The position numbers and the translations under genes were made by a program. A stretch of DNA of 28,261 nucleotides from Dehalococcoidia bacterium (GTDB lineage Bacteria; Chloroflexota; Dehalococcoidia; E44-bin15), in assembly GCA_030667555.1 (NCBI GenBank), contig DAOUVR010000001.1:1-28261 (forward strand), read 5' to 3'. Below are positions 7,101 through 23,871 of this stretch, piece by piece. Numbering within the stretch: the stretch's first letter is position 1; every line of letters begins with the position of its first letter. Below the pieces are notes generated by a model. It was given only the letters and a program-made list of their open reading frames with translations, did not search any database and was not told the origin of the DNA.

Positions 7101-7116
7101 TGTATATATAAGAGCC

Positions 7117-7493
7117 GGCCAAGCAAACCTATAAGCCGAGTTCTGTATCCCAACAGTGTTGGGGCGGTGACCATCTATCTAGCCCTGATGTTACCATCAG
7201 GGTCAAGCGACCCACCCGGGGGTTGTAACGAGGCCGGGCGTCCTCTTCCCCGCTATTTGGTCTTGCTCCGGAGGGGGTTTGCCCTGCCCCCGGTGTCACC
7301 ACCGGAGCGGTGAGCTCTTACCTCGCCATTTCACCCTTACTCCGATAAATCGGAGCGGTATGTTTCTGTGGCACTTTCCGTCCCCGATAACGTGAGTTAC
7401 CGAGGCCTGGGAGTTACCCAGCCTCCTGCCCGGTGGAGCTCGGACTTTCCTCCCCCCGATAAATCGGGGAGCGGTCACCCGGTTTGCCTGGCC
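7117..7493 (-). ncRNA. rnpB: RNase P RNA (bacterial type A)
   Basis: Minus strand has the universal elements GAGGAAAGUCC, GGAAAGUGCCACAGAAA, GGGUGAAA, GGUAAGAGCUCACC, GGCAAACCCC and ACAGAACUCGGCUUAUA, with a terminal P1 pairing (GGCCAGGCAAACC/GGUUUGCUUGGCC). Confidence 0.96.
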
Positions 7494-7940: not shown

Positions 7941-9353
7941 TCACAGCATGAGGATAGTTTCTACGTGGTCGTCGTAGACCACAATGCGTTCGATCAAATG
8001 TTGAAGCAGCGCTTTTCTTGCTGGTGACGTCATGGTGTCCCATCGCTCTCGAAGCTCTTCTAGCTTCTCCAGCATATACTCCTTCCGGTGCTCGGAGGTT
8101 ATCTCCTGCTTTGCTTCAGCTTCAATAAGGGCAACCCTTTGCTCCCAAAGACGCCTCTCTAAAAGCAAATCCCCACTCACAACTCGGAATTCTTCCAGGG
8201 AGATAGCACCCTCGGTCGCCTGGTCGAGGTACTCTCGGAATTTTCGATCCAAAGCCTTCAGCTTTCTCTCTAGCCGCGTGTGCTCTGACGTTTCGTCAGT
8301 GGAATCACGCACCTTAGTCAATTTTGCCAGAGCCTCAGGATTGCTTGAACTCCGTAGTGTGTCGAGCACAAAGCCCTCTAAATCGTCAGCTCTCCTTGTA
8401 TGGTATTGGCAAACGCTTTGATTGGTTCTCGACTGGCACTGGTAGTAGCGATATTCCCCCTTCCTCTTCCCCCCCTTCTTGAGCGTTGTCCAGGTTTGAC
8501 TGCGGTTCACGCCGATCATCCTGTTGCCACAGTATCCACAGTAAGCCAGACCTGATAGGGGGAAAGGCGGCCTTTGGGCGCGAGCCCTTGGTTTTGTCTT
8601 GGCAGTAAGTCGTTCTTGCACTTTGTTGAAGGTGTCATGATTGATTATCGGTCGGTGGCTGTCGGGAACCCTGAAGCCGAAACGGGAGGATGTCCCCAGG
8701 TATGCCCGATTGCGCAGGATATCTCGGATGCCAACGATGCTCCACATGCCGCCTCTTCTGGTGGTGATGCCCTGCTCATTCAGGTATCGAGCGATGAGGC
8801 GCACGCCCATGTTTTTTTGAACATAAAGTCGATAAATGAGTTCTACATTGGCCGCCTCTTCAGGGACGATCTCCAGCCTCTTGTCGGCACCCAGCTTATA
8901 GCCATAGGGTGGCTTGCCCAATCCCTTTCCTCTGACTGCCCTGAGCTTCATCGCCTCCCTAACGGCATCTCCTCTTATTCCACTATGGCGCCGGGTAGAC
9001 CAAATCTGGATAACTATCTCCAAGGGGCTGGCAAGCTCTTCATCGATTGAGAGAACCTTTGCCCCGAGGGCATCAAGCTCGATAAGGCGATACATCAATT
9101 CCTGCGCGTCGGGGTGAAGGTGGCTAAGACTTTTCACCACAACTATAGTGTCCGTTCCATCCCTTCGGATGTAGCTGAGCATGCGCTGATACTGAGTTCG
9201 GCCAAGTTTCCCTGGGGAGCCCGCATCAACAAAGGTCATTACCGGCTGGTAACCCCGTTCCTGGCAAAAGCGAGCAAAGCCTTCCTGCTGCTCCACCAGT
9301 GAGGGGGCTTTCTCAGTTTCTTTGTTTACTCGAAAATAGCCAATCGTTCTCAT
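7941..9353 (-). CDS. Large serine recombinase homologue with a degenerate catalytic domain
   Basis: Resolvase-like N-terminus, PYGY, recombinase domain (IARYLN...WS...IRDILRNRAYLG...HRPII...F.KVQ), Zn ribbon (LSGLAYCGYCG...YYQC...C), coiled coil and LIERIVV C-terminus. Catalytic motif reads YFRVNK (not YxRVS) and SHLHP replaces DRLxR. Confidence 0.85.
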   Translation of the reverse strand: MRTIGYFRVNKETEKAPSLVEQQEGFARFCQERGYQPVMTFVDAGSPGKLGRTQYQRMLSYIRRDGTDTIVVVKSLSHLHPDAQELMYRLIELDALGAKVLSIDEELASPLEIVIQIWSTRRHSGIRGDAVREAMKLRAVRGKGLGKPPYGYKLGADKRLEIVPEEAANVELIYRLYVQKNMGVRLIARYLNEQGITTRRGGMWSIVGIRDILRNRAYLGTSSRFGFRVPDSHRPIINHDTFNKVQERLTAKTKPRARAQRPPFPLSGLAYCGYCGNRMIGVNRSQTWTTLKKGGKRKGEYRYYQCQSRTNQSVCQYHTRRADDLEGFVLDTLRSSSNPEALAKLTKVRDSTDETSEHTRLERKLKALDRKFREYLDQATEGAISLEEFRVVSGDLLLERRLWEQRVALIEAEAKQEITSEHRKEYMLEKLEELRERWDTMTSPARKALLQHLIERIVVYDDHVETILML

Positions 9354-10151: not shown

Positions 10152-10226
10152 TGGTGGGCTCGGCAGGATTCGAACCTACGACCAATCGGTTATGAGCCGA
10201 TCGCTCTGCCACTGAGCTACGAGCCC
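10152..10226 (-). tRNA. tRNA with CAT anticodon, most likely tRNA-Ile2 (lysidine)
   Basis: GGGCTCG acceptor, AGCTCAGTGG D arm, ATCGG-CTCATAA-CCGAT anticodon arm, GGTTCGAATCC T arm, encoded CCA. The GGCTCATAACCG context resembles Ile2 rather than elongator or initiator Met; isotype is inferred. Confidence 0.9.
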
Positions 10227-10315
10227 CTGACGACAACACTGTGGCTAAGTTTAAGCTAACCACATCATCCTAGATGAGCGTTAGTTTATTAACAATATCT
10301 CTGATCAACACCAAA

Positions 10316-10344
10316 ATGCTACCACTTTCGCCCAACATTGGCAA
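10316..10344 (-). promoter_or_regulatory. sigma70-type promoter for the tRNA
   Basis: Minus strand TTGCCA-17 nt-TAGCAT with extended TG. Confidence 0.5.
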
Positions 10345-10480
10345 TAGGTTATACTCGTTTATGAAACCTCACTCCATCCTTACGATACCTGCTTCGCAGC
10401 GTTCTCGTCATTCTTGCATGCCCTCTCGCCCTGGGATGTGCTTACAGGGGACACTCCCTGACCTCGGTCAGAAGGGAAGA

Positions 10481-10542
10481 CCCTTCGACAGGCTCAGGGC
10501 AAACGGAGTATCGGAATCCGCAAGGCGGACAGGGCGAACGGA
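10481..10542. repeat. REP-like element (partial copy) with internal direct repeat
   Basis: cccttcgacaggctcagggcaaacgga (10481-10507) matches 23846-23872 at 26/27. cagggc(a/g)aacgga recurs at 10530-10542, flanking the hairpin tccgc-aag-gcgga. Confidence 0.7.
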
Positions 10543-10705
10543 ATAGTGGGGGCGTTCAATTGAAAGCCACTACTGGGATGGCTAACTTCGTTTGGGACAA
10601 GCCTCGCAATAGCGGGAAGATGTCATTCATATATCTAAACAAGATTAGAGTTTTATTTGCTTTGCGATTAGCGCTGCGGGGCTAATAGTGGGATTACAAC
10701 GATTC

Positions 10706-11548
10706 TCAGCTTTCTTGTGAGGTGGAGCGTTTTGCAGCGAAGCGATGGGTGAACGTTTGGCCAAACCCCATAGTTGTTTTATAGCCCACGCCGCTGTAAA
10801 AGGCGAATTCCGCCAACAGGTTTATAACCCTAAGCCAGTAAGCGTCATGCCTCAGCGCGACATACGAGCACGAACCTATGAAACCTACCTGTTTGCCTCC
10901 GGCAATTTCTACCGTACGTGTTTTGAGCTGACATTGGGATATTGCCACACATTCCTCGGCGTAACGCCTTACCTCCCTGGAGATGGTGATTGGTGACACC
11001 GCATTCCATCGGTCGGCCAGGCTGCCAAACACCAATCCTGGAAGCGGCAGAGGCACATTCTTCCCCCCCGACCTAAATGTAGTAGGCGAGGTGAAAAAGA
11101 GCTTGACCCTTCTGGGGGCGCTTCTGGCTTCAAGCAAATGCCCTTGAGCTAGCTCCTGATAGGAGGTTCGTCTGCTCAAGGGATGAGCGCCGCTTTCCAT
11201 GAAAACATCCTTGACTGAAAAGAGGGTGTTCTCCAGTTCAAACTCCTGAGGCAGCGATGGCAGCACTTTGTCAGCCAGCAGGCTTGAGAGACCGTCCTCA
11301 TAGCTGGTGAAGCGCAATATGCAAGCCTGGCCAGCATTGATACGAACTGTTTCTCTCCTCCCATGTAGGCCCATAAGGCCCGACACAGTGAAGGGCTTGG
11401 CCTCACTATCATCGTGTAGCTTGGCTCCCATCATGGGGTCAGCAGTGGCCACAAGTCGAAGAAATAGCGCGTGCGCTGCCTTGCCCAGGTAGGGGGACAA
11501 CAATGCTTCCTTGCGGACTTGTAGCGCGATGACGGCGCTTAGCAGCAT
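10706..11548 (-). CDS. cas6: CRISPR-associated endoribonuclease Cas6
   Basis: GKAAHALFL, KPFTVSGL, F.SPTTFRSGG, P.PGLVFGSLADRWN, GFIG, and G-rich loop FYSGVGYKTTMGFGQ. Confidence 0.95.
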   Translation of the reverse strand: MLLSAVIALQVRKEALLSPYLGKAAHALFLRLVATADPMMGAKLHDDSEAKPFTVSGLMGLHGRRETVRINAGQACILRFTSYEDGLSSLLADKVLPSLPQEFELENTLFSVKDVFMESGAHPLSRRTSYQELAQGHLLEARSAPRRVKLFFTSPTTFRSGGKNVPLPLPGLVFGSLADRWNAVSPITISREVRRYAEECVAISQCQLKTRTVEIAGGKQVGFIGSCSYVALRHDAYWLRVINLLAEFAFYSGVGYKTTMGFGQTFTHRFAAKRSTSQES

Positions 11549-11652
11549 TTCTTTTCGTTACCTCCAGTGAGCTTCTATGCCTAGTGAACTAGGATCCCCT
11601 TCTGACTATTAACGTCCTTTCTCGCAGCCAGCTATGACTTTGAGGCTGTTTC

Positions 11653-12765
11653 TCAAACACTTTGACGGCCGTCAACGCCTTGCAGGCTCATTCTCACCCA
11701 GCCGAGCGGTTCTCTAGCCTGCCCATCTCCAACGAGCCGCCTGGTCTTGGGGAAGACTTTGGGGAATAGCGAGCCCTGCCACTTCTCCAGGTGATAGGTC
11801 TCGACAACCATGCTTACCTCAGCAGAGGTCAACTTGGTCCCCAGGGTCTTGCCCAACCAACCGGTGCCCCAACCGATGGGCAGGAGGAATTCGCCAGACT
11901 GCAGTGAAGCCTGCCTCCTCGCCAACGCCTCGTAGAACCCCTGCAACTTCCAGATGCCGCAATCGCTGTAGAATTGAAGTTCGAGCTTGACTATCTCTGC
12001 GGAGAAGGCACGACAGCGTTCCACCAACTGGTCGAAAAAGTGTCGCCTGCGAAAGTGATACATTCGCCGCACCCTGCGTTCAGGCCGAAGAATATATCTA
12101 TCCAGAGTCAGGGCAGCCTCAATGGCGGTCCCTTTAGGGATCACCTCCAAAAAAGTTGGCTCTCCCCTTGGTTTGAGAGAAGGTGGCTGACCGCAAAGCG
12201 AAAAGACGGTGACCGGCAGTGCTCTGGGCATGACACCATCCTGTGGGTATGCGTCGGTTAACCGCAGGGCACGTAGCAGGTCGCGATGGCTGTCCCTCGG
12301 GTCGTAGTCGAATAGCCCCGCCTCCACCGAGTCATCGGCCTTTCTGGGGTCATTGCGCTCACCCAGCCCGCCCAGCGTGAGTGCGCCGTGGTGGGCGGAC
12401 CAGGCCAGGGCTGTGCGCAGCGCCCCCTTTATCGAGCTTCCGGGAATGTAAAGCCTGTCAAAGGCGTCCTTTACGTGCTCGCGAATATGGTCAGGGTGCC
12501 CTGCGGCGATATCTATCTCATAGGCTTTGACTCGCTCTATCTCCTCTGGGGTCAGCAGAAGGCTCAGCCTCGGATCCACTGCTGCCGCTGTGCGCCTCTT
12601 GTCGTCTATCTCCCCCAGCAGCCGATTCAGGTTCACTACCAGTGCCCGGTTCCCCTCCACAATGAAATCGTAGTCCTGGAGCAACTCACCTTTCCCTGAG
12701 CCGATGTGAATGGGTGAGAGGGTCTCCAGGGTCAGCCGATAGGTGCTGTGCAGCTCACGGCTCAT
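11653..12765 (-). CDS. csm5: Type III-A CRISPR RAMP protein Csm5
   Basis: LETLSPIHIGSG, DF.VEG, YIPGSSIKGALRTAL, LRALRLTD, LPIGWGTGWLGKT; position after csm4. Confidence 0.92.
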   Translation of the reverse strand: MSRELHSTYRLTLETLSPIHIGSGKGELLQDYDFIVEGNRALVVNLNRLLGEIDDKRRTAAAVDPRLSLLLTPEEIERVKAYEIDIAAGHPDHIREHVKDAFDRLYIPGSSIKGALRTALAWSAHHGALTLGGLGERNDPRKADDSVEAGLFDYDPRDSHRDLLRALRLTDAYPQDGVMPRALPVTVFSLCGQPPSLKPRGEPTFLEVIPKGTAIEAALTLDRYILRPERRVRRMYHFRRRHFFDQLVERCRAFSAEIVKLELQFYSDCGIWKLQGFYEALARRQASLQSGEFLLPIGWGTGWLGKTLGTKLTSAEVSMVVETYHLEKWQGSLFPKVFPKTRRLVGDGQAREPLGWVRMSLQGVDGRQSV

Positions 12766-13808
12766 CGAAATCCTCCCCCTCTCTGAACTCCAATAGGGAA
12801 GGCAAACCCGTAGCGGTACACAGGGTGCTTCTGGGGCTCCAGTTCCGGTGTAACATCTACCAGTTCCCCATAGCTAGGCTTGCCCAAGGAGCACAGCACA
12901 GACCCTTCACCGATGAAGCTAGCGGACTTGCGCCTCTGCCCCGCTCGCTCCGGGGAGTTCACCCACCCACCCCACTGAGTAAGCTCGTAGGCAGCGTGTC
13001 CATCTAGGACGCCGGCCTCTAGTTCTTGCAGTGAGGGGTGATAAAGCGAAAGGGTGATGAACGAATCTCCATCTGTAGGCCAGAATGGCGCAAATGGGCT
13101 GGCGGACTCGAACGAAAACTGGCCATAACCAGCGCTCCTTTCGCCACCAAGTCCAGCCTCAGATAAATAGTGTAGTGCGCTTTCCACAAGCCTTTTTGAA
13201 GCAGGGTCTTCAACTTCGAGAAGGAAATAGAGACCACAGCCAGGGGAGAAACCAACCTGTGCGGCATAATAGCTATGTGAAGCCACACCCAGTCGATCCA
13301 CGGCAACCTTGGGCACGGTGTGACGCCGCCACAGGATAGGTTCATCTCCCGCTAGCGGCAAGGCGGTGCGCTCCTGCTGTGTAAGCCATACCCTTCCACC
13401 CTGACAAAAGTTATCCCTAACCAGATGCCCGTCCAGGGGCTCGCTACGAAGTATGGGTTCCAAGATACCCTGGGAGATGAAGCGTACGTCTTTAAGCCGA
13501 ACACTTCCCTTTTCTTCGGTTTCTCTCTCAAGGGGTAGATTGACCATGGGATTGGGGAAAAGAAGCACCTCGCCAGCATAGGGGAACAGGGAGGTGATTC
13601 TGAAAGGTGGCTGCTCCTGAAACTGGGAGAGAAGCTCAACCAACGCATTCTCGCCCTCCCACATTCTCACACCTATGGCCAAAGCGCCAAAAAATGAATC
13701 GGAATGGAAGACTTCGTCCGTAGCCTCAATGCCCAGACTCGCTTCACCGAAGTGAAAGGCCGAGCGGGGCTTAAGCTTGTAGAGCCATATCTCTGCCATG
13801 GTCAACAT
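12762..13808 (-). CDS. csm4: Type III-A CRISPR RAMP protein Csm4
   Basis: FHFGE, FHSDSFFGAL, FRITSLFPY, PKVAVDR, GLGGERSAGYGQF, HPVYRYGFAFP. Confidence 0.94.
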   Translation of the reverse strand: MLTMAEIWLYKLKPRSAFHFGEASLGIEATDEVFHSDSFFGALAIGVRMWEGENALVELLSQFQEQPPFRITSLFPYAGEVLLFPNPMVNLPLERETEEKGSVRLKDVRFISQGILEPILRSEPLDGHLVRDNFCQGGRVWLTQQERTALPLAGDEPILWRRHTVPKVAVDRLGVASHSYYAAQVGFSPGCGLYFLLEVEDPASKRLVESALHYLSEAGLGGERSAGYGQFSFESASPFAPFWPTDGDSFITLSLYHPSLQELEAGVLDGHAAYELTQWGGWVNSPERAGQRRKSASFIGEGSVLCSLGKPSYGELVDVTPELEPQKHPVYRYGFAFPIGVQRGGGFR

Positions 13809-14624
13809 TTACCAGGAGAACGTCTGGCGTAACCAGTTCATCGCCTCCTCTTCCTTAACAATGAGTTCTCTCAGGGACAACCCCTTCTCGAAGGTCTTCT
13901 CCTCCAGATACCGCTCGCGGGTGCGGACGGTCAGTGAAAGCTCCTGGAAAGCGATCTTGCCACTGCCCCGGGTTCCCAGGCCACCGAGATAGTCATCCTC
14001 CAGAAACTGCATAGCGTCCAGCAGGTGCAGGAAACGGTCCACATCGGATTCCTCGTACACGTTGTAAACCAGTTCCAAGGGGGCAAAGATGGCGCCGGCA
14101 GGCACCCGCTCGACCTGGCGGGGAGTAGCCGCCGCGGTAACCCGGTCAAGGGATGTTTCCCATTTGACCTCGGTGAAGGGGAGTTCAGTCCTGGTCCTGG
14201 CCAGCCTTTGTGCGCTGTTCTCGTCAAGGGGCACATCCCGCACTATGAGGCGGGTTGGTAGCACGGCAAACCCTGCCGGTATGCCAAAGATGGGACAGAC
14301 CTGACAGTTTAAGTAGGCTTCTTCGTCGGGTATTCTGTTTCCCTTTTCGTCAAACTTGTAACAGGCATGGATACGAACTCCACCCATTGCCCATTGTTGA
14401 GATTTGTTATAGTGCTTTTCCAGCAGGGAGCGCAATTTTCCCTTTAGCGAGGAGCCGGGGATGTAGGGGCGGTTGGTAAGAGGGTCGCGCACCACAGGAT
14501 TGTCCAAACCGCCAATGGCTAAAGCTCTCCTTGCCGATCTGATGTGGAGGCCGGTTACGATTTCTATGCTGCCGGTGATAAATATCCTTCCATGCAACTG
14601 GATTTTACGTTCGGTTTCTGTCAT
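13809..14624 (-). CDS. csm3: Type III-A CRISPR backbone RNase Csm3
   Basis: TGLHI, IGGLDNPVVRDPLTNRPYIPGSSLKGKLRS (catalytic Asp retained), C..C Zn insert, EVKWE..LDR.T.AA.PRQVERVPAG, DDYLGG.GTRGSGK. Confidence 0.96.
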   Translation of the reverse strand: MTETERKIQLHGRIFITGSIEIVTGLHIRSARRALAIGGLDNPVVRDPLTNRPYIPGSSLKGKLRSLLEKHYNKSQQWAMGGVRIHACYKFDEKGNRIPDEEAYLNCQVCPIFGIPAGFAVLPTRLIVRDVPLDENSAQRLARTRTELPFTEVKWETSLDRVTAAATPRQVERVPAGAIFAPLELVYNVYEESDVDRFLHLLDAMQFLEDDYLGGLGTRGSGKIAFQELSLTVRTRERYLEEKTFEKGLSLRELIVKEEEAMNWLRQTFSW

Positions 14625-14633
14625 TGCACTCCC

Positions 14634-15134
14634 CTAGTCCCTGCCGCCGTGGTAGCGGTGATATGCGACAATGGCCTCAAAGAAATTCACTAAGCGCCTG
14701 AAGGAGTTGTAACGCTCCGTCCCTCCCATATTCGCCTTTTCCCCTGCCTCTGGCTCGTCTGGTTGCTCCAACACGATGTCAATAACGCGGCAAATGACCT
14801 CTCGCAGCTCCTCCACAGGAAATACATCCTGTCCATCCAGTGTTTCCTTCACTTTCTTTGACTGATATGCCAGCTTGGGCTTCAGCAGACGGAGCTCCCG
14901 CTGTGCTTCAGCCGCACTAGAGGGCCAGGTCATCTCGATCATATGAATATCACCGAGGATACCTCGTATTTGATGCGTGGCCAGGTTCATTTCTTTTAGC
15001 TTCCTACCTACACGCTCGGCGCAGTTTACCAGCACCTCGGCATCTCCATCGACAATGATCTTGCGCATTTCCGCTGAAGACACCAGTTTCTTTTGTGGCT
15101 GAGACTCTGCTGAAGACCCTTTCACCTGCGTCAT
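14634..15134 (-). CDS. csm2: Type III-A CRISPR small subunit Csm2
   Basis: THQIR, LKPKLAY, F..LVNFFEAIVAYH. ATG at 15134 with GGAGGG RBS overlaps the cas10 stop (ATGA), so it is preferred over 15167. Confidence 0.93.
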   Translation of the reverse strand: MTQVKGSSAESQPQKKLVSSAEMRKIIVDGDAEVLVNCAERVGRKLKEMNLATHQIRGILGDIHMIEMTWPSSAAEAQRELRLLKPKLAYQSKKVKETLDGQDVFPVEELREVICRVIDIVLEQPDEPEAGEKANMGGTERYNSFRRLVNFFEAIVAYHRYHGGRD

Positions 15135-17551
15135 AGTCCCTCCGTGCGAGTGAGCAGTTTCACCCACCGTGCCGCCAGTGCTATCTGAGGAAGCTCAACT
15201 GACAGGCGCGGGGCTTGCATTAGAGCTTCCCTTATATCTGCCAGTTGGGCTTGGGCCGGGCCTTCTACCCGTTCCATCATGCGGGAAAGATGGTAGGCTG
15301 CGTGCCACATCCAGGGGCCGTAGTGAATCGTTGGCCCATGGAACAGCCGCCTGTCGGCGTTCATCGTCTGTCCTTCGAGGTAGCTTTGGTGAAGCTCCAT
15401 TAATAGATTAAGCAGAGTTCGAGGCGCCTTACCCTGTTCCATCCGTCCATCGATGGCTATTATATCCTTCAAGATATCGCGCCACTCTCTCACCTTCTGA
15501 AACTGTGACCAGTTGAGCGTCTGGCCGAGGAAGGTGAAGGCGTTCTTCCCCGGCATTCGCTTGGCGCCGCTCTCCAAAGATTCTGTGGCTGCTTCAATTA
15601 GTTGATACAGAGGGAAGTGGGGGTCATCAACTGTCGTCCCGCCCGAGATGTGCACCAAGGGGTTGCAGCAAGTAAACTCTGAAAAGTCGCGGTGTATATT
15701 CCAGGCAAGCTCGGCTATCTCACTCCAGCTGATGGTGACAAGAAGGTCATCACCTCCGGTATAGATGGCGTAGACCTTGTCTTTTCCGTCATGGGGGTTC
15801 CTCGTCGCACACACGCTATTCAGCCAGCCCTCGAAGAAGAGACGGAGAAGGAAACTCATTGAAGAGACTCTGGATATGCTGGCATCTTCGCCGAGCCCAT
15901 GTTGGAAAAGCCATCCCACGTCGTCCACATCCATGCGCAGGACACCCAATAAAGGCACCCCTTCAGATGCCTGAGCAATGGTCTCAAAGTCCGCAATCTC
16001 TGCAGGCTCCTCCTTCTTTCGTGGTGATGCCTGGGCTAGAAGGCGAAAGCCAAGCGCTGGTGGATTCTTTGCTGCCTTGATAGCATTGACTACCTCGGTG
16101 CTCAGAAAGTCAGTGGAGTTCAGTTTCAGCAATGTCGCCCCTGGGCCGAGCCTATTCAAATCCACCTGATGGGGTTCATCCAGGAGCCTCACTACAAAGC
16201 CCAGACCAAAGAAGAAGAGCTTCTGCCATCCTTGAACCTGAACATCTTGCTGACCCTCTTGTCTGGGGGCGATAAGGAGATAGTTGGCATCCGCCAGTTG
16301 CTCTCCCAGGTGTTTGAGAGAATGGCACAGGTCACATTCTCTCTCTTCTCCCTCTCCGAGCTTATGGCGCGCATCCTCAGCTCCGCACACCGCGCATATG
16401 TCTGCAGGTTCTCTGGCACCTTTTGGTTTGAGAATCTCTTCATAGAATTCCCCTGGTGCCAGGTCGCCAAATGGCCGCCGCTTTGCCCAGCCAAGCTTTT
16501 TGTGGACACCAGCCCATGCTTCGGAGAAATGGCCGAAGTCCTGCGGGCACAGTTCTTGAGTTGTGAGAGCCAGGCACAGTCCATCGCGGTGATGCTTCAA
16601 TAACGCCTGTGAAAAATCTCTACGCAGCGATGATAGTGTCTGACCGTCGACGTGGTGTGCCAGAATATAAAAGTGCCCCCCGCCAGCATAGAGCAGGTTG
16701 ACGGTGTAGAGCCCTAACTGGCGTAACAGCCACAGGGCTGCTACCTCAGTCAGGAGTTCCAGGTAAAAGGAGCGCCCGCGAAGCCCTTTGGCTACCCCCT
16801 TGGAAGTCTGCGTGTAGAGGAAACGCTGCACGCCGCAAATATCACCGCCTATCAGTGACAGACATGGTTTCTCTTTCGCCGCATCAGAGCTGCCCGCGAG
16901 CAGTAAATCCACCTCAGCCTCAGAGATGCCGGAACGATACAGGCTAAGGGCGATGGCACAGGTGGTGCGGAGATGGTCAAACAGCGAGACATCGGGGATG
17001 TCCGCATTGTAGGCGCTGGGGATGCACCAGGTGAACTTGCACAGAAGGTGATAAAACGTATTGATGAGTGCTGGGAAATCTGTCCCATACAGCCCCGTGA
17101 CCGCTGCCGTTTCTCGGATAAAATTATCCCACAGTTCAGTGTAGGACTTCTCTGGTTCCTTGTCTGTATCTTGCTTGGGAAAGATAGTGTCCCTGTGGAG
17201 ATCCAACGGCTTTAAAGGAAAGTAGAAGGGGCTGCTATCGGTACCAACCTTTGAGAAGACGGACAGGAGCTGTTTGACAGCGGGGTTGCCCTCCTCCTGG
17301 TGTTCTCTTTCTAGGGACGATAGATGGTCTGCAAGCTGAATCAACTTGCTCAAGTAACCGTCAGGTCGGTTATGTGCCGAGGCCAGGCTGGCACTTTGGC
17401 TCCATTTCTGGCCAAAATGGTCCAGGATAAACTGGCGTGAGAGTAGGGCATGGGCCCGGTCCTTCTGTTCGAGCGGGTGAGAAGTTCGCTGCCAGAACTT
17501 CCCTACATCGTGGAGCAAAGCAGCAAGAACGAGGCTCTCTTCTTGGGACAT
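15131..17551 (-). CDS. cas10: Type III-A CRISPR Cas10/Csm1 with HD nuclease and Palm cyclase domains
   Basis: N-terminal LAALLHDVGKF (HD), IPDVSLFDHLRTTCAIA, GGDICGVQRF, LRGRSFYLELL, YAGGGHFY, CxxC..CxxC, LRMDVDDVG and intact YTGGDDL. RBS GGAG. Confidence 0.97.
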   Translation of the reverse strand: MSQEESLVLAALLHDVGKFWQRTSHPLEQKDRAHALLSRQFILDHFGQKWSQSASLASAHNRPDGYLSKLIQLADHLSSLEREHQEEGNPAVKQLLSVFSKVGTDSSPFYFPLKPLDLHRDTIFPKQDTDKEPEKSYTELWDNFIRETAAVTGLYGTDFPALINTFYHLLCKFTWCIPSAYNADIPDVSLFDHLRTTCAIALSLYRSGISEAEVDLLLAGSSDAAKEKPCLSLIGGDICGVQRFLYTQTSKGVAKGLRGRSFYLELLTEVAALWLLRQLGLYTVNLLYAGGGHFYILAHHVDGQTLSSLRRDFSQALLKHHRDGLCLALTTQELCPQDFGHFSEAWAGVHKKLGWAKRRPFGDLAPGEFYEEILKPKGAREPADICAVCGAEDARHKLGEGEERECDLCHSLKHLGEQLADANYLLIAPRQEGQQDVQVQGWQKLFFFGLGFVVRLLDEPHQVDLNRLGPGATLLKLNSTDFLSTEVVNAIKAAKNPPALGFRLLAQASPRKKEEPAEIADFETIAQASEGVPLLGVLRMDVDDVGWLFQHGLGEDASISRVSSMSFLLRLFFEGWLNSVCATRNPHDGKDKVYAIYTGGDDLLVTISWSEIAELAWNIHRDFSEFTCCNPLVHISGGTTVDDPHFPLYQLIEAATESLESGAKRMPGKNAFTFLGQTLNWSQFQKVREWRDILKDIIAIDGRMEQGKAPRTLLNLLMELHQSYLEGQTMNADRRLFHGPTIHYGPWMWHAAYHLSRMMERVEGPAQAQLADIREALMQAPRLSVELPQIALAARWVKLLTRTEGL

Positions 17552-17594
17552 ATCATCTCCGCAATGAGCCCAACCAGGGCCATGGGGTTACCAA

Positions 17595-17629
17595 ATTATC
17601 GCAAGCCCTCGATGAGATGTCAACTTGAC
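17595..17629 (-). promoter_or_regulatory. Promoter of the cas10-csm-cas6 operon with a palindrome over the -35 box
   Basis: Minus strand TTGACA-17 nt-GATAAT (17623-17595). Inverted repeat GTCAA-C-TTGAC at 17619-17629 overlaps the -35. Confidence 0.65.
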
Positions 17630-23789: not shown

Positions 23790-23871
23790 CCGTTCGTGGT
23801 GAGCTTGTCGAACCATGAACGGCCCTTCGGTTAACTCAGGACAGGCCCTTCGACAGGCTCAGGGCGAACGG
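23790..23871. repeat. REP-like long palindromic element between convergent genes
   Basis: ccgttcgtggtgagcttgtcgaa pairs with ttcgacaggctcagggcgaacgg (21 of 23 positions, counting G-U). Internal partial copy cccttcggttaactcagg. Right arm is repeated at 10481-10507. Confidence 0.75.

Follow-up and report, generated by a model that had tools for sequence, protein, structure and literature searches.

How can a complete CRISPR effector operon serve its host when no repeat array, no adaptation genes and no gene for a signal-activated effector lie beside it? The question is raised by a type III-A (Csm) operon in contig DAOUVR010000001.1 of a Dehalococcoidia bacterium (assembly GCA_030667555.1), a stretch of 28,261 nucleotides (nt) that was analysed whole and that we call the window; it is one entire contig (C44), the longest in its metagenome-assembled genome (MAG). 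Our analysis suggests a type III-A interference module that is reduced yet still works, in other words an ordinary reduced or split locus, and we put the probability of this reading at about 0.6. Throughout, G000 denotes the source MAG, G001 to G004 its sister species in the same genus, and G008 and G012 members of other genera of the family.

The interference module

The genes cas10, csm2, csm3, csm4, csm5 and cas6 follow one another on the minus strand from position 17551 down to 10706 as six intact open reading frames (ORFs), their families called with NCBIfam equivalog cut-offs and Pfam profiles (Table 1). The csm2 coordinates are those of the longest ORF, which overlaps cas10 by 37 nt, and the real start may lie further downstream; csm5 overlaps csm4 by 4 nt, and csm3 and csm4 abut. 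A predicted promoter sits 44 nt 5' of the cas10 ATG.

Cas10 carries an HD pair at residues 14-15 (LLHDVGKF), a first Palm motif, a Cys4 zinc finger and a GGDD motif (YTGGDDLL), the last lying in Palm, of which the protein has two domains; HD, GGDD, zinc finger and first Palm motif are retained in 8 of 8 Cas10 orthologues. Csm3 finds its best PDB match in Csm3 of Thermococcus onnurineus (E = 2.8e-43), and its Asp41 aligns with the aspartate of the wild-type structure (6muu), the residue that is Ala in the cleavage-dead one (6o7h). In the orthologue alignment the Gly-rich loop of Cas6 reads GVGYKTTMGFG. Judged by sequence, the subunits, the catalytic residues and the Cas6 of a III-A (Csm) interference module are all present. 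A preliminary description of this DNA had listed six intact genes with these overlaps and this abutment, the promoter, HD and GGDD in Cas10 and the catalytic aspartate of Csm3, and the ORFs, profiles and motifs agree with it on every count.

The aspartate is not universal in the wider clade. In a sister lineage represented by G012 (L014) and by L019, a JGI metagenome contig, the catalytic Asp of Csm3 (GGLDN; window positions 14502-14504) is replaced by Gln (GGVQN or AGVQN), and Cas10 of the same lineage still keeps its HD and GGDD motifs. Csm3 of G012 and L019 would be a naturally cleavage-impaired backbone.

Ancestry and selection

The operon occupies one conserved site, in the order thiolase, HTH (helix-turn-helix) or other small gene, cas10 to cas6, tRNA-Met and Zn-ribbon gene, serine recombinase, RNase H. 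This arrangement recurs in G001 to G004, all four other species of the genus, where Cas10 is 80-91% identical, and outside the genus in G012 (Cas10 56%), G008 (50%) and L019 (59%), as well as in two further MAG contigs, L026 and L027; Cas10 was not found in 18 other family genomes searched. Relatives rank identically by identity for Cas10, for the thiolase and for a neighbouring membrane protein of the EEP family. The ratio of nonsynonymous to synonymous divergence (dN/dS) is 0.09-0.29 for cas10, csm3, csm4, csm5 and cas6 and at most 0.48 for csm2; within the genus it is 0.12-0.29 for the first five and 0.25-0.48 for csm2, values that resemble those of neighbours such as the EEP gene and the recombinase, and dS for the operon (0.07-0.37 to G002-G004 and 0.5-0.7 to G001) is within the spread seen for the housekeeping genes alongside. 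Because the module stands at the same site in its relatives, is under purifying selection and has a dS like that of its neighbours, the sequences show that it is vertically inherited at one chromosomal site and has long been kept functional.

Could the locus instead be a decaying relic, which recently lost its array and adaptation genes and whose interference genes are intact merely for lack of time? Such a history would explain why no partner loci were found in G000, and it would sit well with the fact that the presence of arrays and of type I systems varies among congeners. However, dN/dS on none of the branches to the congeners comes near 1, the eight orthologous operons show no stop codon or frameshift, and the module has survived an inter-genus divergence with dS above 1. 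We therefore regard a relic as very unlikely. An apparent break in csm5 of G002 proved to be a scaffolding run of 10 N and not a frameshift.

The preliminary description had also recommended placing Cas10 in a phylogeny and comparing the neighbourhoods of its homologues. In the resulting tree the Cas10 proteins of the clade are monophyletic (100/100), and their branch arises within the canonical III-A loci of Chloroflexota. The nearest Cas10 outgroup, L020 (42% identical), reads cas10-csm2-csm3-csm4-csm5-csm6-cas6-cas1, and the Cas6 relatives L028, L032 and L033 (43%, 37% and 29% identity) directly adjoin arrays of 36-37-nt repeats. L020 and L028 are the nearest canonical Chloroflexota III-A loci and are homologous to the window locus throughout; unlike the window, L020 has csm6 between csm5 and cas6 and cas1 after cas6, and L028 has an array of at least seven repeats some 320 nt behind cas6; in the window a gap of 104 nt stands in for csm6, and REP-like elements and a tRNA take the array's place. 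This comparison of loci shows that the clade goes back to a canonical locus whose csm6, cas1/cas2 and adjacent array have been lost.

One congener departs from the common arrangement on the cas10 side. In G004 (L011:9206-9856; G004:C23) only the first 30 residues of the HTH protein, which is of the XRE type, and residues 331-419 of the thiolase find a match, so that in this species the DNA separating cas10 from the EEP gene has probably suffered a deletion.

Arrays and adaptation genes

Where could the guides come from? The cognate repeat type, GTnnGAAAnnnnCTAATCCTCGNAAGGGGATTGAAAC, is 37 nt long (AATCCTCGNAAGGGGATTGAAAC-type), with a 7-bp stem and a GNRA loop; its family has the hairpin AATCC-YCGNAA-GGATT followed by GAAAC, adjoins the outgroup Cas6 genes and occurs in many Chloroflexota MAGs, in arrays that reach 39 repeats. 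A covariance model of this one repeat family, comprising 21 repeats, was run over 34 family genomes with the best 150 candidates per genome scored, and strong matches fell only in G004, in G001 and in one Cas10-less genome. G004 has, on a separate contig (L034:1-2400; G004:C62), an array of at least five 37-nt repeats GTGGGAAAGATGCTAATCCTCGAAAGGGGATTGAAAC running from the contig's first bases, together with solo copies; the array is remote from the Csm operon and lies at a contig break. G001 has three near-identical copies of a cognate-type repeat, again remote from the Csm operon.

Adaptation genes are likewise found at a distance. G004 has a type I-C-like locus (L018:6980-15583; G004:C49) with cas3, a possible cas8, cas7, cas5, cas4, cas1, cas2 and an array of its own, and G008 has a complete type I-E system (L075:3079-12615; G008:C79) whose array, 12 repeats or more, continues up to the end of the contig. 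At the level of the genus, as read from these assemblies, the system is a split one: every species has the interference module, and arrays and adaptation modules lie far from it and differ between genomes. The preliminary description had proposed guides that act in trans from distant loci, and had named an ordinary split locus as the outcome that would undo its more unusual readings. Because cognate repeats and adaptation modules stand at distant loci in congeners, the case for a split locus is made in part, for the relatives G004 and G001; trans-acting guides likewise gain support at genus level, from the remote cognate repeats of these two species and from the type I-E system of G008. Neither has a counterpart that we could find in G000.

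Some of the remote repeats are arranged in unusual ways. On G004:C62 two degenerate solo repeats on the same strand (1050-1086 and 2363-2399) flank a gene for an NPD-like oxidoreductase, and a further high-scoring solo repeat lies at G004:C68:11174-11210. In G001 (L035:1214-1871; G001:C1:36213-36870) the repeats are 328 and 293 nt apart and not about 75 nt, and each of the long inserts holds a ribosome-binding site and a small ORF with two transmembrane segments (72 aa in one, about 77-86 aa in the other). It is possible that transcripts of these repeat-flanked genes are processed by Cas6. The type I-C-like locus of G004 is possibly degraded, its cas5 ORF being just 109 aa long with an extra HD fragment alongside.

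Several results weigh against a split system in the source organism itself. In G000, whose assembly is fragmentary and 80.9% complete (1.17 Mb in 183 contigs, N50 7.6 kb), a general CRISPR array scan, which covered this genome only, found no array; the profiles of cas1 (PF01867) and cas2 (PF09827) had no match, and neither a cognate repeat, nor any other repeat of the relatives, nor type I-C or I-E genes were found. G003, which is 97% complete and has an intact operon, likewise yielded no cas1/cas2 and no cognate repeat, and the covariance model did not find the cognate repeat in G008 (97% complete), G012 or G002. The only array of G008 is the type I-E one, and its use by Cas6 and the Csm complex is a candidate only. 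Nor was any RNA run found that holds the source organism. For G000 the missing partner loci are weak evidence, because its assembly of 1.17 Mb stands against congener genomes of 1.6-2.4 Mb and so holds only about 50-70% of a congener-sized genome. G003 is the best candidate for a truly array-less carrier; G004, in which a cognate array is seen, is 99% complete.

The sites of the remote loci were also sought in G000. On the one side of the G004 type I-C site that could be followed in G000 (contig C139), other genes replace the array and cas genes, and the G000 contig on the gltX side of that site stops inside gltX. For the genes adjoining the C62 array of G004, G000 has paralogues only. No spacer from G004 or G008 and none of the long G001 inserts matched G000.

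Could the module then be truly array-less, here and in G003, and perform a host function such as RNA-guided regulation or self/non-self surveillance with non-canonical guides? The operon keeps its site from genus to genus, purifying selection acts on it, and all its catalytic motifs persist; arrays and cas1/cas2 occur in some carriers only, and G003 yielded neither at 97% completeness; and solo cognate repeats and ORF-flanking repeats do exist in congeners (G001:C1 and G004:C62). Against this, neither a solo nor any other cognate repeat was found in G000 or G003, MAGs often lose arrays, the G004 array itself being at a contig break, and no candidate guide was identified. We consider this explanation unlikely, and the preliminary description's suggestion of co-option for regulation with non-canonical guides found no direct support. 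A more specific version holds that the core Csm-Cas6 module outlives arrays, so that the species of G000 and G003 would be array-less and Cas6 would cut guides from transcripts that carry solo repeats or are flanked by repeats; the small membrane-protein genes of G001 and the NPD-like gene of G004, both repeat-flanked, resemble such guide sources, and the targets would be transcripts of the host or of resident elements, outside adaptive immunity. This we hold to be quite unlikely.

The region behind cas6

No array and no direct repeat family was found by repeat searches of the window, and the cognate-repeat covariance model gave zero matches in it even with filters off; together with profile annotation of the window, these searches confirm what the preliminary description had said, that there is no array here and that the flanks hold housekeeping and acyl-CoA genes. 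The intergenic stretch 10227-10705 behind cas6 was considered as an eroded CRISPR array and rejected: three motifs in it recur across the MAG, and the cognate-repeat model is silent there. A 35-nt tandem unit occurs at 6 sites in the MAG, the unit CCCTGAGCCTGTCGAAGGG at 18 sites and the palindrome GGCGTTCAATTGAACGCC at 8 sites. Because all three recur genome-wide, the motifs behind cas6 are dispersed elements similar to repetitive extragenic palindromes (REP). In a congener, one such motif is a 35-nt unit in three tandem copies with no spacers, and in a close strain from another metagenome 227 other nt replace the 178 at 10463-10642. The intergenic stretch behind cas6 is variable and REP-like and is not an array.

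The REP-like family, CCCTGAGCCTGTCGAAGGG and CCCTGTCCGCCTTGCGGAYTCCGATAC with the palindrome GGCGTTCAATTGAACGCC, is found in intergenic DNA throughout the MAG: in the window at 10445-10600 and at 23846, and on G000 contigs C40, C96, C132 and others. A spurious ORF (10274-10546) overlies the elements behind cas6. Tandem repeats at the ends of G000 contigs C37, C59, C78, C171, C1, C161 and C178 are coding or tRNA repeats and not arrays.

Signalling without a recognised effector

The preliminary description had further proposed an effector acting in trans, and this proposal is unsupported. Six profiles of the CARF, SAVED and Csm6 types (Csx1_HEPN, Cas_APE2256, SAVED, Cas02710 of the Csm6 HEPN family, Card1_endonuc and Cas_NE0113) had no match in five genomes of the genus, among them the 97%- and 99%-complete ones, in a search in which SAVED had no positive control and which did not include NucC, CorA-type, Cam1 or Csx23 profiles; a tblastn search with the outgroup Csm6 had no match in G000. 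Judging by these profiles, Cas10 throughout the genus appears to work as HD nuclease and cyclase without any effector for cyclic oligoadenylate (cOA) that can be recognised. Type III-A immunity by way of the Csm3 RNase and the Cas10 HD nuclease, which cuts single-stranded DNA (ssDNA), needs no cOA effector. Because Cas10 keeps its HD nuclease here, an unrecognised receptor need not be postulated.

Such a receptor may exist all the same, and two candidates can be named for a protein of unrecognised family that would read a cOA or SAM-AMP signal: the membrane EEP protein and, in relatives, a gene of the AF_2141 family (PF27374). In favour of signalling, none of the eight orthologues has lost GGDD or the first Palm motif, and searches of the genus yielded no effector of a known family. 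The EEP protein is polytopic with a C-terminal phosphoesterase domain, and in three genera its gene keeps synteny with the module. However, the gene is also present in two family genomes that lack Cas10, G021, where it has different neighbours, and G024, whose contig is too short to read, and the protein looks like a membrane phosphoesterase. In G003, L019 and G008 cas10 is immediately preceded on its own strand by the AF_2141-family gene (about 210 aa). The products of this gene in G003 and L019 are 57% identical; the protein resembles winged-helix proteins and not CARF or SAVED domains, and the gene was not found in G000, where the divergent XRE-type gene, also present in G001, G002 and G004, occupies that position. 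With the HD nuclease making a cOA effector dispensable in any case, we think an unrecognised receptor improbable; it is compatible with a reduced module, and both can hold.

Proposed mechanism and relation to known systems

How would a reduced or split module work? Going by the known functions of these families, Cas6 would cut pre-crRNA (the precursor of CRISPR RNA, crRNA) at the 37-nt GTnnGAAAnnnnCTAATCCTCGNAAGGGGATTGAAAC-type repeat and leave the 8-nt tag AUUGAAAC, and Cas10-Csm2-Csm3-Csm4-Csm5 would bind the crRNA. Once the guide has paired with a foreign transcript, Csm3 would cut the RNA and the HD domain of Cas10 nearby ssDNA; the Palm/GGDD site probably still makes cOA, for which no recognisable receptor is present. 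Guides would come from arrays elsewhere on the chromosome, as in the congeners G004 and G001, and new spacers from co-resident type I adaptation modules where these are present. In G000 the partner loci would be either unassembled or lost in the species.

The gene set and order, the HD and GGDD motifs and the Csm3 aspartate are those of canonical III-A systems (T. onnurineus, Streptococcus thermophilus, Staphylococcus epidermidis, Lactococcus lactis); unlike these, the window locus has neither csm6 or another CARF effector, nor cas1/cas2, nor an adjacent array. Hoikkala, Graham and White (2024) described type III loci that are cyclase-positive and effector-less and share components in trans (PMC11229360). 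Such loci are common, 133 of 1113 even among those that lack HD, and cross-type sharing of crRNA, adaptation and interference is cited in the same paper (PMC11229360). The present locus resembles them in having a cyclase-positive Cas10 with no known effector in the locus, and in that arrays and adaptation genes of relatives lie elsewhere (type I-C and a separate cognate array in G004, type I-E in G008). It differs in that Cas10 keeps HD, in that the module is fixed at one site and vertically inherited where the others are scattered, and in that no partner locus was found in G000 or G003. Because effector-less, array-less type III loci are already documented (PMC11229360), the novelty implied by the preliminary description was overstated.

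Should the locus indeed be an ordinary reduced or split one, it would be a further type III interference module served by arrays and adaptation genes at other loci, with little to add beyond annotation. It is mildly useful to see that a CRISPR effector module has been passed down vertically at a fixed site in several genera of streamlined Dehalococcoidia from sediment, whereas arrays and type I partners are gained and lost. Mildly useful, too, are a genus-wide HD-plus-cyclase Cas10 with no recognisable effector and the Asp-to-Gln change of Csm3 in the sister lineage.

Expression

Expression was looked for in Logan contigs from one metatranscriptome library and one 'RNA-Seq' library that is probably DNA, so that matches may include DNA carry-over. 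Short contigs of a cold-seep metatranscriptome, 90-95% identical to the window, cover cas6, csm5/4, csm3, csm2 and the 5' end of cas10, and contigs of the same library also fall on the HTH gene and the thiolase. Because they are just 90-95% identical, the matches come from a congener, and they are a weak hint that this congener transcribes its Csm operon. Sequencing runs that contain the window sequence itself are marine-sediment, cold-seep and vent metagenomes.

Flanking genes and minor observations

On either side of the operon lie only housekeeping and acyl-CoA genes, together with RNase P RNA and five tRNAs. One side carries hisG, hisS, nfeD, SPFH, AOR and birA, the RNase P RNA and RNase H, and, beyond these, the large serine recombinase, a CT398-like Zn-ribbon gene and tRNA-Met. 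On the opposite side lie the XRE-type HTH gene, the thiolase, the membrane EEP-family protein, GGACT, an acyl-CoA dehydrogenase, two CoA-transferases and tRNAs. The HTH gene, divergent from cas10, is a possible regulator of the operon.

Table 1. Features of the Csm locus and its surroundings; positions refer to the window unless another locus is named.
Feature	Position	Strand	Evidence or remark
RNase P RNA, bacterial class A	7116-7490	-	297 bits; between birA and RNase H gene
Large serine recombinase	7941-9353	-	Packed between Zn-ribbon and RNase H genes
tRNA-Met	10152..10226	-	ARAGORN and Rfam; downstream boundary of module
Intergenic region behind cas6	10227..10705		Dispersed REP-like elements and tRNA-Met promoter
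cas6, pre-crRNA endoribonuclease	10706..11548	-	TIGR01877 61.3 bits (cut-off 58.65); PF10040, PF19308
csm5-cas6 gap, 104 nt	11549..11652		csm6 at same position in closest canonical outgroup L020
csm5	11653..12765	-	TIGR01899 105.5 bits (cut-off 38.3)
csm4 (Cas5)	12762..13808	-	TIGR01903 221.2 bits (cut-off 55); Csm4_C
csm3 (Cas7 backbone RNase)	13809..14624	-	TIGR02582 220.5 bits (cut-off 90)
csm2 (Cas11 small subunit)	14634..15167	-	TIGR01870 47.8 bits (cut-off 30.6); PF03750 E = 4.5e-22
cas10/csm1, 806 aa	15131..17551	-	TIGR02578 602.9 bits (cut-off 170); Pfam HD, Csm1_B, Cas10 palm2
Sigma-70-type promoter TTGACA-17-GATAAT	17595..17623	-	11/12 consensus positions; TG-extended -10; consensus match only
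XRE-type HTH gene, 66 aa	17648..17848	+	PF01381 E = 6.7e-15; divergent from cas10
AF_2141-family gene	L009:17911-18537 (G003); L019:9255-9932; L015:9106-9882 (G008)	Same as cas10	

A 1.55-kb island in G003 (L010:6150-7745; G003:C4), missing from the window, lies at the 3' side of tRNA-Met; it encodes a ribbon-helix-helix antitoxin with a MazF/PemK-like toxin, and copies of the tRNA flank (GGATTTTTGTTGTTG..TTGACA) frame it as a direct repeat. A match to GGATTGAAAC near the Csm locus of G003 falls inside the mazF-like gene of this island and is a chance match. The serine recombinase is syntenic across genera, 63-90% identical, with dN/dS of 0.15-0.26, and its N-terminus reads YFRVNK, with Asn at the position expected for the nucleophilic Ser.

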